In this document: positions 4,512 to 39,100 of the stretch, piece after piece
How the letters are laid out: each line of letters begins with the position of its first letter
Numbering within the stretch: position 1 is the stretch's first letter
Origin: Vicinamibacterales bacterium
GTDB taxonomy: Bacteria > Acidobacteriota > Vicinamibacteria > Vicinamibacterales > UBA2999
NCBI GenBank assembly: GCA_035492455.1
Contig: DATJJE010000078.1
Span: 3,556-67,555, forward strand
Length of the DNA: 64,000 bases
Direction of reading: 5' to 3'
Notes under the pieces: generated by a model
What the model was told of the DNA's origin: nothing
Databases searched by the model: none
What the model saw: the letters and a program-made list of their open reading frames with translations, nothing else
Program-made: the position numbers and the translations under genes

Positions 4512-4569
4512 GCGATTTGTGATTAATGATTCTTGATTTCAAATCACTAATCACAAATCAGCAATCACA
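4512..4569. repeat. inverted pair of 4x heptamer arrays (NTGATTN x4 / AATCANN x4), AT-rich hairpin
   Basis: GCGATTT GTGATTA ATGATTC TTGATTT c a AATCACT AATCACA AATCAGC AATCACA. 18-bp stem with one mismatch. Confidence 0.9.
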
Positions 4570-10270: not shown

Positions 10271-10273
10271 AAT

Positions 10274-10337
10274 GGCTTCAGGCTTCGGGCTGCAGGCTTC
10301 GGGAATTCTTCCGAAGTCAGGAGCCCCGAGCCCGAAG
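10274..10337. repeat. inverted pair of 4x heptamer arrays (GGCTTCN x4 / NCCGAAG x4); probable topA terminator hairpin
   Basis: GGCTTCA GGCTTCG GGCTGCA GGCTTCG ... TCCGAAG TCAGGAG CCCCGAG CCCGAAG. Fills the topA-trmFO spacer. Confidence 0.85.
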
Positions 10338-10342
10338 TCTTC

Positions 10343-11728
10343 ATGATTCACATCATCGGTGGCGGTCTCGCCGGATGCGAGGCTGCCTGGCAGGCTGCAT
10401 CGCTGGGCGTCCACGTGACGCTGCACGAGATGCGGCCGGTGTGCACGACCGCCGTGCACAAGACGGATCAGCTCGCGGAGCTGGTCTGCTCGAATTCGCT
10501 GCGCAGCGACAAGCTCGATAACGCGGTAGGCCTGCTGAAAGAGGAAATGCGGCGGCTCGGTTCGCTCGTGCTGCGCGCTGCCGACGCGAATCGCGTACCT
10601 GCCGGCGCAGCGCTCGCCGTCGATCGCGAGCGATTCTCGAGCGCCGTTACCGAGGCAGTCACTGCGCATCCGCTGATCGAGGTCACGCGCGAGGAGGTCC
10701 CGCGCATCCCGGACGATCCGGCAATGTATCCGCTGATTGTCGCGACCGGCCCTCTTACATCAGAAACGCTCTCCGCGGACGTTGCGCGGATCGTCGGTGG
10801 CGACCACCTTTATTTCTACGATGCGATCAGCCCGATCGTGCTGGCCGAGACCATCGACATGTCGAAGGTATTCCGCGCCTCGAGATGGGGTCGGGACTCA
10901 TTACGTGGTTCGTCGGACGGCGGCGATACGAACCACGTAATGAGTCCCGACCCCGTTGAAGGCGACTATCTGAACTGCCCGCTGACGAAAGACGAGTACG
11001 ACCGGTTCTACGATGCGGTCGTCACCGCAGAATCCGCCACGGTGCACGATTTCGACAAGGAAAAGTTCTTCGAGGGATGCCTGCCGATCGAAGTGATGGC
11101 GCATCGCGGCCGCGACACGCTCCGCTTCGGTCCGATGAAGCCGGTGGGGCTGATGGATCCACGCACCGGGCGTGCACCGTACGCCGTCGTGCAGCTGCGT
11201 CAGGATACGCTCGCCGGCGATCACTTCAGCCTCGTCGGATTTCAGACGCAGCTCAAATGGGGCGAGCAGGCGCGCGTGCTGAAGCTCGTGCCCGGCCTCG
11301 AGCATGCGGAGTTCGTCCGTTTCGGCATGGTGCACCGCAACACCTACATCAACGGACCGACGGTGTTGCGCGAGACGTGGCAGACCCGGTTCCGCGACGA
11401 TCTGTTCTTCGCCGGACAGATTTCCGGGGTGGAGGGATACGTCGAGTCCGCGGCGTCCGGACTGATCGCAGGCCGCAACGCGGCGGCGCTTGTGCGCGGC
11501 GAGGAGCCTCGCGTCCCGCCGCGGACGACGGCAATCGGGGCGCTGGCGTATTACGTCTCGCACGCGGATCCGCGGAATTATCAGCCGACCAACATCACGT
11601 TCGGCATCATGGAGGCGCCTCCGAACATCCGCAAGCGCGCGGATCGGAAGCTGGCGACGTCCACGAGAGCGCTCGAAGATCTGGACCGATGGAACAGCTC
11701 CGCGAGTTTCTCGACTACATCCGCCTGA
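10343..11728 (+). CDS. trmFO: methylenetetrahydrofolate--tRNA-(uracil-5-)-methyltransferase TrmFO, carrying an in-frame palindromic insertion
   Basis: FAD-binding IHIIGGGLAGCEAAWQAA, plus DYLNCPLTKDEY and GQISGVEGYVESAASG motifs. Confidence 0.92.
   Translation: MIHIIGGGLAGCEAAWQAASLGVHVTLHEMRPVCTTAVHKTDQLAELVCSNSLRSDKLDNAVGLLKEEMRRLGSLVLRAADANRVPAGAALAVDRERFSSAVTEAVTAHPLIEVTREEVPRIPDDPAMYPLIVATGPLTSETLSADVARIVGGDHLYFYDAISPIVLAETIDMSKVFRASRWGRDSLRGSSDGGDTNHVMSPDPVEGDYLNCPLTKDEYDRFYDAVVTAESATVHDFDKEKFFEGCLPIEVMAHRGRDTLRFGPMKPVGLMDPRTGRAPYAVVQLRQDTLAGDHFSLVGFQTQLKWGEQARVLKLVPGLEHAEFVRFGMVHRNTYINGPTVLRETWQTRFRDDLFFAGQISGVEGYVESAASGLIAGRNAAALVRGEEPRVPPRTTAIGALAYYVSHADPRNYQPTNITFGIMEAPPNIRKRADRKLATSTRALEDLDRWNSSASFSTTSA
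10887..10954. repeat. 68-nt perfect palindrome (26-bp arms, 16-nt loop) in frame inside trmFO
   Basis: GGGGTCGGGACTCATTACGTGGTTCG (10887-10912) is the exact reverse complement of 10929-10954. Confidence 0.95.
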
Positions 11729-30438: not shown

Positions 30439-30533
30439 ATAGCCACAGAGGACACGAAGTAAAATTTGTTTGGACTTCGTGTTCTTCGCGCCCTTCGCGG
30501 TGAAAAAAGGATCTTCGTGGCCTCTGTGGCTAT
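30439..30533. repeat. 21-nt inverted repeat ATAGCCACAGAGGaCACGAAG / CTTCGTGgCCTCTGTGGCTAT (one mismatch)
   Basis: The arms at 30439-30459 and 30513-30533 flank 53 nt. The right arm lies in the signal-peptide codons of the lipoprotein gene. ATAGCCACA is also directly repeated at 30424. Confidence 0.88.
30452..30482 (+). terminator. hairpin ACACGAAGT-13-ACTTCGTGT after the GAF-type activator gene
   Basis: 9-bp perfect stem 25 nt after the stop codon. The loop is AT-rich and there is no clean U-tract. Confidence 0.45.
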
Positions 30534-36093: not shown

Positions 36094-36156
36094 TGCAAAA
36101 TGCAAAATTCAAAATTCAAAAGAATTATGTGCATTTTGCATCTTGAATTTTGAATT
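36094..36156. repeat. AT-rich heptamer arrays TGCAAAA x2 TTCAAAA x2 ... GTGCATT TTGCATC TTGAATT x2
   Basis: Fills the BCCP-tamB spacer. 36094-36104 is complementary to 36130-36140 and 36108-36121 to 36143-36154, an interleaved arrangement. Confidence 0.88.
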
Positions 36157-39100
36157 TCCGGAAGCTGTTCACTCTCCACCGTCACCCTCTGACGAAGAGG
36201 ACGCGGCGCATCGTGCGCGCAATCGTGGTGACCTTTGCCTGCGCGTTCGCGGTCGCGCTGGTCACCAGCGTTACTGTTGACCTCGGGCCAACACTGCGCC
36301 AACGGGCGGAAACAGCCGGGTCCAACTACCTCAAGCGTCCGATGCACATCGGCCGCCTTGCCGTGCATCTCTGGCGCGGCAGCTTCCAGGTGGACGACCT
36401 TGTCATCGAAGGCCTCACCCCGAAGTCCCGCCCGTTCCTCACTGCAAAGCATATCGACGTCTCGATGCCATGGACGACGCTCTTCACGCAGCGCGTCGTC
36501 TTCGACGCGATTCAGATGAGCGACTGGGACATGTACGTCGAGCTGAACGCCGACGGCAGCCACAACTTCCCGAAATTCCCGGGCAGCAGCGGGCGCAAGA
36601 GCGCCTGGACGACGACGCTCGAGTATGTGCGCGCGTCGAGAGGGCAGTTCACGTACGACGACCACGGCACACCCTGGAGGACCATCGCTCGCAATCTGGA
36701 CGTCATCGTCGCGCGGCCCGCGGACGAGTACCGCGGTCAGGCGAAATTCTCGAAGGGCACCGTCAACTTTCAGAACTACGAGCCGATGGGTGCCGACATG
36801 ACGTGCACGTTCCGCATCGTCGACGGCAAAATCGTGCTCGACCGCATCCTGCTGCAGACGGATGGCGCGGTCTCACAGCTGACGGGTGTTGTCGACACAC
36901 GGAAATGGCCGGAGCAGATCTATCGCATCAAGTCGAAGATTGATTTCCCGACCGAGAAGAGCATCTGGTTCGCACATGACAAGTTCACTGTTGCAGGGAC
37001 TGCCGATTTCACCGGCACGTTTCACCTGTTCAAAGAACAGCTTGGCAACGGGCGTACCCGCACCGGTCGCGAACTGAGAGGCGACTTCGTTGCGCCGATG
37101 GCCGGTGTCAATGCATATCGCTTCAGCAATCTCCGCGGATCGGTGCTGTGGGTCCCCGAGAAGCTGGAAGTGACTGACGCGACAGCAAATTTGTACGGTG
37201 GCAGCGCAAGATTCAGTTACACGATGGGCCCGTTCGGCGTGCACGGCATGCCGGCGAACGCCGCGTTTGACGCCGCATGGTCGAATGTCGATCTCACCGA
37301 GTTCACAAATTTCCTTCAGTTGAGAGGCATCCGGCTGGCGGGTCGCACGAGCGGGCGCAATCTGCTCGAATGGCCGCTCGGGAAGTACTCGCAGCACCGC
37401 GGCAGCGGCGAACTGCATGTCGACGCGCCGTCGGGAACAGAACTGATGGGCGCGCGCATGCCGATCGAGCGGATCGAGGCGCGGGAGCGGCTCGGAAAGC
37501 TGTGGGGCCCGTTCGACAACACGCTGCCGGCAGAGCCGATTCCGACCGACGCCACTATTACCTATGCGTTTGATGCCGACGGCATTGACCTGGCGCCAAG
37601 CCGTTTCGCGACGTCGAGTACGTTCGTCGAGTTCGAGGGACGAACGGCGTACGGCGACAACTCACGCATCCCGTTTCATGTCAGCAGCGCGGACTGGCAG
37701 GAAAGCGATCGACTGCTGGCGGCACTGATGACTGCCTTCGGCAGCCCGACGAATGCGATTCCCATCGCTGGCGACGGCACCTTCGACGGCGTGATGATGA
37801 ACAGTTTCTCGCGACCGCGCATCGAAGGCACATTTGCCGGCGAGCGGATGCGGGCGTTCGACGTCGACTGGGGCACGGCGTACGGCACTGTCGCCATCGA
37901 GAACGCGTACGCGGACATCAAGGACGTCGTTATTACCGACGCCGGGTCACAAATCCTCGCCGACGGCCGGTTCTCGCTCGGCTATCCGCGGAAAGATGGT
38001 GGAGAAGAGATCAACGCCCGCGTCCGCATCGACGGTCGCCCGGTGATGGATCTTCGTCACGCCTTCGCGCTGGACGACTATCCGGTTGACGGGCTTCTGT
38101 CAGGTGAGTTCCACGTCTATGGCGCGTATACGAGGCCGTTCGGCTTCGGCACGATGGCCATCGCCAACGGCACCGCCTATCACGAGACATTCGACAGCGC
38201 GACGGCGAGCCTGCGTCTCGAGGGTGCGGGCGTGCGCCTCGACAACATCATGGTGTCAAAGGGCACCGGACGGGGGACGGGGGCGGCGTATGTCGGGTGG
38301 GACAGCACGTATCAGTTCAACTTCGACGCACAGCGGATACCGGTGGAGAGTCTCGCTGTCGTGCAGTCGCCGAACAACCCTCCGCTCTCGGGACTGCTCG
38401 ATTTCACGGCCGGCGGCAGCGGTACATTCGATTCGCCGCGTTACAACGTGCACGGCACGGTGCGCGACTTCTTCATCGCGGACGAAGGCATCGGCACGGT
38501 GACGGGGGACATCAACATCGCCAACGACGTGATGGCGCTCAAGCTCGAAGCCGCATCGCCTCGTCTCGCGGTCTCCGGCACCGGCACGGTTGCGCTCAGC
38601 GAGGAGATGGACGCGGACCTGTCGTTCACGGTGTCGGACACGTCTCTCGATCCGTATCTGCGTGCATTCGATCCCCAGCTCTCTCCGTACACGACCGCGG
38701 TTGCCAGCGGAAGCTTGCGCGTTGTCGGCGAGCTGGCGGACATCGATCATCTCGTCGTCGATACGACGGTAGACAAGCTTGACATGCGGCTGTTTGACTA
38801 CCGGCTGCGCAACGCGGTGCCGATCAGGATGGCGCTCGATCGGCATTCGGTTCGCGTCACCGACATGCGATTGATCGGCGATGAGACGCAGCTCGACGTC
38901 TCCGGCGTCGTCGATCTCCACAACGAGCGCATCGCCATGCGCGCGAGTGGCGCCGCCAACCTCGGCATCCTGCAGGGGTTCGTGCCGAACATCCGCAGCA
39001 CCGGCCAGGCGACGCTTGCGGCGACGCTCGATGGTCCGATGCGTACGCCGGTCGTGACCGGCACGATGACAATCGAGGACGGTCGCATCCGCCACTTCGA

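Follow-up and report, generated by a model that had tools for sequence, protein, structure and literature searches.

In a 64,000-nt stretch of DNA from a Vicinamibacterales bacterium of the phylum Acidobacteriota (contig DATJJE010000078.1; the whole stretch is hereafter called the window), the trmFO gene contains a perfect 68-nt palindrome in frame. This palindrome is probably a copy of a low-copy, dispersed palindromic family of soil Acidobacteriota that landed in a loop of the TrmFO protein, where it would be carried as a tolerated passenger. The evidence comes from the recurrence of its terminal inverted repeat (TIR) at unrelated sites in other acidobacterial genomes, from an alignment to TrmFO of known structure that isolates the extra residues, and from relatives in which the same loop is empty, filled or differently filled.

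The palindrome within trmFO

The two arms of the palindrome (10887-10913 and 10928-10954, + strand) are 27 nt each, 100% complementary and separated by 14 nt. An earlier note on this DNA had described a perfect palindrome with 26-bp arms and a 16-nt loop; its perfection stands, while one extra pair changes the sizes to 27 and 14 nt. The first 19-20 nt of the left arm constitute the family TIR, here GGGGTCGGGACTCATTACG, a single base away from the GGGAGTC variant found in the copies of other genomes described below. The hairpin loop (10914-10927, CGGACGGCGGCGAT) is the variable centre and encodes part of SDGGD. The right arm is the exact reverse complement of the left and contains TAATGA, a double stop in one of three frames that does not affect the trmFO frame. 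The element has such stops in a single frame of either strand, so that it is readable in two of the three phases in which it could be inserted. As the earlier note had stated, the open reading frame (ORF; 10343-11728, + strand) stays open across the palindrome, reading WGRDSLRGSSDGGDTNHVMSPDP there. The note's further view that no second copy is present in the window is borne out: at up to 3 mismatches, the 27-mer arm occurs in the 64 kb only as its own two arms, and it has 0 matches in 100 dinucleotide-preserving shuffles. The predicted fold has an energy of -57.8 kcal/mol (z = -9.8 against dinucleotide shuffles), compared with a mean z of about -0.1 for control segments of trmFO. No Rfam family scored above threshold for the palindrome, and the sub-threshold matches are miRNA-precursor look-alikes of the kind that any generic long hairpin produces.

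The host gene encodes a protein of 461 amino acids whose identity as TrmFO is given by profile, PDB and Foldseek matches (Pfam GIDA, 8e-95; PDB 3g5q/3g5r/3g5s, 1.8e-136; Foldseek match of the predicted structure to 3g5s, 1e-52). The HMMER alignment to Thermus thermophilus TrmFO (3g5q) splits cleanly into query 2-185 with chain 4-183 and query 207-453 with chain 184-430, leaving exactly 21 extra residues (186-206; 10898-10960, + strand) that have no T. thermophilus counterpart and correspond to the "about 20 codons" that had been proposed as inserted. These residues fall within a hypervariable loop from W182 to G207 (10886-10963, + strand), bounded by the conserved motifs FRASR-W and (G)DYLNCP. 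The query cysteines C49 and C246 fall opposite Cys51 and Cys223 of the T. thermophilus enzyme, which we take to be the two catalytic cysteines. In an AlphaFold model with 55 diverse sequences in its alignment (mean predicted local distance difference test score, pLDDT, 85.8; predicted template modeling score, pTM, 0.87), residues 189-204 are the sole internal segment with pLDDT below 50, and residues 184-208 are modeled as coil between a short helix (181-183) and a strand (209-214). The model fits an insert site in a flexible, disordered surface loop.

The surrounding gene order, dprA-topA-trmFO-xerC-M16-M16 (the last two being M16 peptidase genes), is conserved between the window and relatives. 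In the gene calls, trmFO runs about 40 nt into the downstream xerC-like integrase gene, both in the window (11689-11728) and in L081, L083, L085 and L093-L095 (L numbers denote loci of relatives and MAGs). Two metagenome loci, L039 and L076, each show one in-frame stop in the trmFO stretch delimited by tblastn, which may mark a pseudogene or else stem from sequencing error or from alignments that were joined.

A dispersed family of palindromes in Acidobacteriota

The family was traced by scanning a collection with one genome per prokaryotic species, using as the query the 20-mer arm core common to the window and two relatives (GGGGTCGGGASTCATTACGT). Seven loci were recovered, five of them in three Acidobacteriota metagenome-assembled genomes (MAGs). 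The remaining two, in one cyanobacterium and one Clostridia MAG, are single half-sites and appear chance-like, since by our own estimate about two random 20-mer matches are expected in ~600 Gb over both strands. A scan of viral contigs for the TIR gave 0 matches. The earlier note had proposed searching for the arm in other genomes, and this search places the same TIR at four sites outside trmFO in the three MAGs.

MAG nzgw81 (GCA_023265015.1) harbors one copy in its trmFO (L092) and another on a different contig (L090), where an 81-nt palindrome fills the gap between convergent M16 peptidase and amidase genes. In MAG MFD02242.bin.2.68, a 69-nt copy stands directly after a TAA stop codon and upstream of the gene for Ku (L089:6125-6193), and an imperfect copy of 90 nt lies upstream of a DUF2007/RNase III-like gene (L087:5-94). 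In MAG MFD02242.bin.1.279 the copy is 43 nt long, its 19-bp arms enclosing a loop of 5 nt, and it separates Ku from a convergent ORF (L086:3500-3542). Another family copy was found in a soil metagenome (X4), in which contigs enter window-type arms from unrelated flanks (...GGCGGTTAAT before the initial GGGG and TTATTGATAACTGACTGAAGGAGG after the final CCCC); this copy is located between a TAA and a Shine-Dalgarno-like AAGGAGG.

All of these copies begin with GGGGTC and finish with GACCCC. They share their outer 19-20 bp, GGGGTCGGGAGTCATTACG (consensus GGGGTCGGGA(G/C)TCATTACG; further written forms are GGGGTCGGG, which serves as the family label, and GGGGTCGGGASTCATTACG), and their centres are all different. 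Their length ranges from 43 to 90 nt, with arms of 19-33 bp each, and the inner stems are visibly related among copies (...CGTGTTTCGAAAACC, ...CGTTTTTCGAA, ...CGTGGTTCGT). The position of the L087 copy, immediately upstream of a gene with DUF2007 and RNase III domains, is a single case and possibly a coincidence.

The boundaries of the mobile unit can be read from L086 and L089, which are syntenic around Ku at ~77% identity. Downstream of Ku, L089 is empty (CGTCGTAAG joined to ATTCTCCC, that is, TAAG followed by ATTCTC), and L086 is filled (AGTGTAAT, the 43-nt palindrome, then ATTCTCGT; that is, GTGTAAT, element, ATTCTC). From this comparison, the mobile unit appears to be the palindrome itself, inserted without a target-site duplication. 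Only the downstream pair is usable, as the spacers upstream of Ku in the two loci are non-homologous. Neither at this pair nor at the six family copies was a direct repeat seen, in agreement with the earlier remark that no target-site duplication was obvious. Four of the six independent sites (L086, L089, L083 and X4) have TAA or TAAT as their 5' flank, and at three of the four intergenic sites this TAA is the stop codon of the upstream gene. Ku is flanked on opposite sides in the two syntenic loci (downstream in L086, upstream in L089), two separate insertions in one neighborhood.

The HUH/Y1 transposases, such as those of IS200/IS605 and the RAYTs (transposases associated with repetitive extragenic palindromic sequences, REPs), are characterized by hairpin DNA that inserts 3' of a short motif without duplicating its target. 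The Acidobacteria contain a sharply defined RAYT-like group, the TIRYT transposases, which are bordered by long TIRs with GGGGWSAS in common (Di Nocera et al. 2013, PMC3733652), and in K. versatilis one TIRYT-type TIR forms a repeat family (PMC3733652). The start of our family TIR, GGGGTCGG, agrees with this motif at seven of eight positions (A to G at position 7), and that of a related hairpin in the TrmFO loop of L094, GGGGTCAG, agrees at all eight. The best candidate family is the TIRYT-associated TIR repeats of Acidobacteria, with a putative transposase association; by this analogy of termini and flanks, mobilization by an HUH/TIRYT enzyme is conceivable but somewhat doubtful. Integron attC sites and the inverted repeats of the Tn3 family (GGGGTC...) were considered and dropped, as the flanks are without R'/R'' core sites by eye and without a 5-bp duplication.

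Taken as a sequence of events, the preferred reading would run as follows. The palindrome itself may be mobile as a single-stranded hairpin, by way of an HUH/Y1 (RAYT/TIRYT-like) transposase, with the other copies lying in short spacers at gene ends. One copy would have landed in TrmFO, in a surface loop that is disordered and tolerates insertions, and, being in a stop-free frame (two of three are), would be translated as ~22 extra hydrophilic residues. It would most likely be carried along as a tolerated passenger that lacks a function, with its arms kept Watson-Crick by copying at the DNA level, either through template switching between the arms during replication (quasi-palindrome correction) or through conversion or re-insertion from other copies.

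Three other long inverted repeats are present in the window (4514-4559, 30439-30533 and 36098-36157), unrelated in sequence to the trmFO palindrome. Two of them are strikingly AT-rich for a genome of 64% GC (GATTTGTGATTAATGATT and AAATGCAAAATTCAAAATTCAAAA types), and the third consists of ATAGCCACAGAGGACACGAAG and its inverse.

The hypervariable TrmFO loop and the maintenance of the arms

Loop lengths were compared between FRASR and DYLNCP in the 120 best protein relatives (79-100% identity) and in 80 metagenome loci (53-85% identity). In 69 of the 120 protein relatives the motifs are separated by 8 residues (W-ERGETDE-G), and ~50 have inserts at the same spot, with spacings of 9-64 residues; two values above 64 come from mis-anchored motif matches and were set aside. 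Nearly all of these inserts start with WGRSL/F. Across the 80 metagenome loci, the loop spans 3-71 residues. The earlier note had held that a homologous loop of ~20 residues, encoded by non-palindromic DNA in distant orthologues, would speak against an insertion; this does not hold for the present sequence, as relatives at 53-61% identity have loops of 3-7 residues. The most distant relatives read YGRGDD or YGKSLDGTDD, which makes the WGRSL flank ancestral, and many loop alleles finish in ACGVDDGEGD.

The content of the loop is as varied as its length. REP-like GC stems such as GGTCCGGCTGAAGCCGGACC occupy it in L019, L040, L042, L013, L010 and L036, and other long hairpins do so in L018, L021, L034 and L094. 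In L093 and L095, from the closest clade to the window, the loop contains a perfect in-frame (CCGGGAT)x4...(ATCCCGG)x4. Such perfect 4+4 heptamer arrays were located at L093:3556-3660, L095:1615-1758 and L001:3393-3500 (88-89% TrmFO identity); they are translated as RDPGSGIRDP...DPGSPIPDP, and their G-rich arm has four GGG tracts. The L094 hairpin (L094:3556-3750; proteins P0086 and P0101) has 31-bp arms and is followed by a tandem duplication of the right arm and the ACGVDDG flank, giving a loop of 64 residues. In other lineages the loop holds pure microsatellites: a 9-nt repeat gives (QGA)x9 in L014, and L012 has runs of (GAT)n.

Taken together, the inserts show stronger folding than do control segments from the same genes (Wilcoxon p = 0.001), with z below -2 in only 12 of 47. 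A universally conserved hairpin at the loop was rejected on these 12 of 47 and on the absence of an insert from most close relatives; a hairpin is common at this site, yet it is not required there. When all inserts were searched by BLAST against 560 kb of relatives' loci (short contigs), a single match was returned, a 19-nt non-hairpin match to L042 that is probably due to chance. The TrmFO loop is an insertion-tolerant site, in which relatives have acquired inserts of many different kinds.

On a TrmFO tree computed without the loop residues, the "empty", palindrome, heptamer/PDP and CGVDD allele types are interspersed. The short allele reads W-ERGETED-GD, where the window has W-[palindrome]-VE-GD; the window thus differs from the "empty" allele of its nearest relatives by more than a simple insertion. 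By eye, sliding-window identity shows 40-50-nt flanks about equally diverged from "empty" and "filled" relatives.

Several observations weigh against a dispersed element that landed in this loop. The palindrome allele requires at least four changes on well-supported branches of the TrmFO tree, and the nearest neighbors of the window, P0003 and P0004 (L082; 93.7% DNA identity), have the short "empty" loop. An allele found at four or more separate places of the tree goes beyond simple vertical descent, and either recombinational exchange of alleles, repeated loss or repeated targeted (site-specific) insertion must be invoked. No second exact-TIR copy was found in the 64-kb window or in the 560 kb of relatives' loci, and the 20-mer scan gives one or two exact-TIR copies per MAG, low against classical REPs. 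The scanned collection was without the window's own genome, and none of its matches had the C variant of the window. No transposase was seen among the neighbors of the five known copies, and none is linked to the family. The filled/empty comparison is a single pair with a 6-nt common flank. Lastly, a weak period-7 signal in the arms (p 0.005-0.025) hints at kinship with the heptamer hairpins of the same genome, which grow locally, rather than with a transposon.

That last signal leads to an alternative in which the hairpin grew locally, from tandem heptamers and an inverted partner formed in place, with the similar sequences elsewhere being convergent or spread by recombination. The arms, at 27-28 nt, equal 4 x 7, and only period 7 exceeds a z of 2 (2.2-2.8). 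Close relatives have the perfect 4+4 heptamer hairpins at exactly this loop, and the topA-trmFO spacer, 70 nt upstream, bears a (GGCTTCR)x4 inverted-array hairpin. Even so, the periodicity is weak, the four units being only 4-5/7 alike, and z reaches 6.8 in L093, 6.3 in L095 and 3.8 in L001. Heptamer hairpins are moreover locus-specific in unit sequence and the TIR family is not, and independent local growth cannot explain identical 19-20-nt termini at five unrelated loci in three MAGs. We consider local growth unlikely. The spacer hairpin itself (10271-10340; -47 kcal/mol) is composed of GGCTTCA GGCTTCG GGCTGCA GGCTTCG and an inverted array, and ends a few bases before the trmFO ATG.

Just as improbable, in our judgment, is a broader proposal in which the loop is a preferred landing or growth site, a resident hairpin recruiting HUH transposases or template switching, and the GGGGTCGGG family is an undescribed, TAA-targeting, HUH-mobilized element that can turn into coding sequence; or else the hairpin acts as an RNase III-type switch in a topA-trmFO-xerC operon. 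Were the loop such a preferred site, it would have captured several unrelated hairpin families time and again, namely the TIR palindromes, the 4+4 heptamer arrays and the REP-like stems.

The history of the arms can be followed in four trmFO copies, those of the window, L085, L081 and L083. All four share the right junction (CCCC followed by GTTGAAGGCGA) and the loss of the ACGVDDG flank still present in P0021, which makes them one allele lineage rather than independent insertions. Relative to the window, the L085 gene is nearly identical, and the TrmFO proteins of L081 and L083 are 91% and 84% identical. L083 retains 15 nt (GGAAGAAGTATAAGG, encoding GRSIR) that are missing from the window, a difference consistent with a deletion between GGGG repeats. 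Over the four copies, 22 of the 27 pairs are invariant and 4 have changed on both sides. The double changes are all transversions (C:G to G:C, G:C to T:A twice, and T:A to A:T). No pair has changed on one side only, and there are 0 G:U pairs in the 108 cells; the single unpaired cell is A17 to T in L085, which produces L187F. Paired cells amount to 99.1%, against 93.0% in shuffles (0 of 500). Each compensated change alters amino acids on both arms, as in G189V with N197K in L081, and the identity of the window to L081 is 92.6% over the palindrome, against 85.0% over the gene.

Watson-Crick-only pairing by way of transversions, with a lone fresh mismatch at the level of a polymorphism, points to a copying process at the DNA level. 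Template switching creates and maintains perfect stems (PMC8794818). Arm position 11 is G in L083, in L090 (from the same MAG as L083) and in the copies of the other two MAGs, and C in the window and L081, a pattern that supports conversion or re-insertion from other copies of the genome; no differing letters were reported between the X4 copy and the window arms. The arms could be homogenized by template switching or by conversion or re-insertion from other genomic copies. Selection on RNA structure is less likely to be the cause of the perfect arms.

Such selection would be expected if the palindrome were a functional RNA hairpin in the trmFO mRNA, serving as an RNase III site (tuning trmFO and uncoupling topA from xerC in the operon), a ribosome pause between folding units or a stabilizer. 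A perfect duplex of 27 bp has sufficient length for RNase III, and the gene downstream of one family copy is RNase III-like. The 27-28 perfect base pairs have been kept by compensated changes in three lineages despite amino-acid changes on both arms, the palindrome is better conserved than its gene, and the inserts at this site share the tendency to fold. The pattern of compensation, all transversions and no G:U, is nevertheless atypical of the RNA level, and the few strongly folding inserts and the many insert-free close relatives indicate that no hairpin is required. The same element is also found in ordinary spacers elsewhere, and Rfam gave no family above threshold. The sole evidence from RNA is a 260-nt contig of a soil metatranscriptome (X25), which matches the window allele over 10947-11206 without a single difference and has one end in the right arm, 8 nt of which it covers. 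It suggests that trmFO of the window allele is probably transcribed; its end says nothing on RNA processing, as DNA assemblies break at the same place. A functional RNA hairpin thus seems slightly less probable still than local growth.

Contig ends inside palindromes are normal for short-read assembly graphs. Near-identical sequence is present in more than 20 public soil and rhizosphere metagenomes, and two of these from soil (X12, 2014, a 786-nt contig; X1, 2018, a 734-nt contig) span 10750-11100 with 0 differences. An assembly or sequencing artefact is accordingly of negligible probability: fold-back chimeras can produce long perfect palindromes and contigs of several runs break within this one, but its identical assembly in independent runs of 2014 and 2018 excludes a one-off fold-back, relatives (84-91% protein identity; other samples, another MAG) have diverged yet perfect palindromes at the same place, and the reading frame is kept.

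Comparison with known systems

In-frame palindromic elements are textbook knowledge for Rickettsia and barely documented in free-living soil phyla, for which the trmFO palindrome provides a multiply sampled acidobacterial case. Close relatives here have a single housekeeping enzyme with its loop naturally "empty", "filled" or "differently filled", and the arms form an unusually clear record from nature of how double transversions maintain a stem in translated sequence, in which templated mutation can be set against selection. The case also bears on the way in which conserved proteins gain peptide segments from mobile hairpins. A loop that tolerates 3-71 residues is of use in protein engineering, and accounts for odd behavior of gene-length and identity filters in this orthologue group.

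Palindromic elements inserted in frame inside genes are known (PMC10969869), and REPs occur within genes too, in some cases at one and the same position in related species (PMC3733652). The earlier note had compared the palindrome with Rickettsia palindromic elements (RPEs), REPs and MITEs (miniature transposable elements with inverted repeats). This comparison holds in kind, given a dispersed TIR, a 21-residue insertion and a disordered loop, and fails as regards membership in the RPEs or the REPs proper. Like an RPE, the trmFO element is a dispersed palindromic repeat, in frame in a housekeeping tRNA-modification enzyme, whose extra peptide falls in what is modeled as a fold-compatible surface loop (PMC10969869); RPE-1 is found in truB, and RPEs end in CGTC (PMC3733652). 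Unlike the RPEs, it belongs to Acidobacteriota and its family measures 43-90 nt rather than ~100-150 bp, ends in GGGG...CCCC without a terminal CGTC, and is low in copy number, with long, perfect arms and a variable centre and hence no conserved encoded peptide. The absence of the tag, the different size and the different host exclude it from both the RPEs and the GTAG/CGTC REPs.

REPs are hairpin repeats that for the most part lie immediately downstream of a coding region, where the neighboring genes are convergent or co-directional, and now and then within a gene (PMC3733652). The family copies have this REP-like location, L090 lying between convergent genes, L086 after Ku, and L089 and X4 after TAA. 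However, the family is without GTAG/CGTC at either end, its arms are longer than REPs, which are imperfect palindromes of 20-40 bp in total, and REPs number tens to hundreds per genome, against the one or two exact-TIR copies per MAG found so far. The likeness to the TIR repeats of TIRYT/RAYT transposases lies in the start GGGGTCGG, at seven of eight motif positions, the lack of a target duplication and the position 3' of TAA, as expected of HUH/Y1 transposition; some acidobacterial TIRs with GGGGWSAS form families of moderate copy number (PMC3733652). MITEs are likewise small, non-coding, TIR-bearing and dispersed, and can give in-frame fusions (PMC10969869), but the trmFO family is without the target-site duplication expected of DDE-type MITEs (in one clean pair) and without a recognizable parent insertion sequence, and its element is a single hairpin rather than TIRs around a conserved core.

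Two further comparisons concern how such stems arise. Quasi-palindrome correction by template switching likewise produces one-step complementary changes, Watson-Crick stems and homogenized arms, also in coding sequence (PMC8794818; PMC8604942); it is a mutational mechanism, not an element family, and is suggested here by 4 double transversions and 0 wobble pairs. Heptamer arrays of the GGGNATC type (Rehm et al. 2015, PMC4692102) favor four 7-nt units at gene junctions, and inverted heptamer arrays are found in this same loop in close relatives and upstream of trmFO in the window; they differ from the palindrome of the window, which has only a weak period of 7 and a sequence common to several loci instead of being locus-specific. 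The trmFO palindrome is a clear new case of a phenomenon already known and does not represent a new kind of system.

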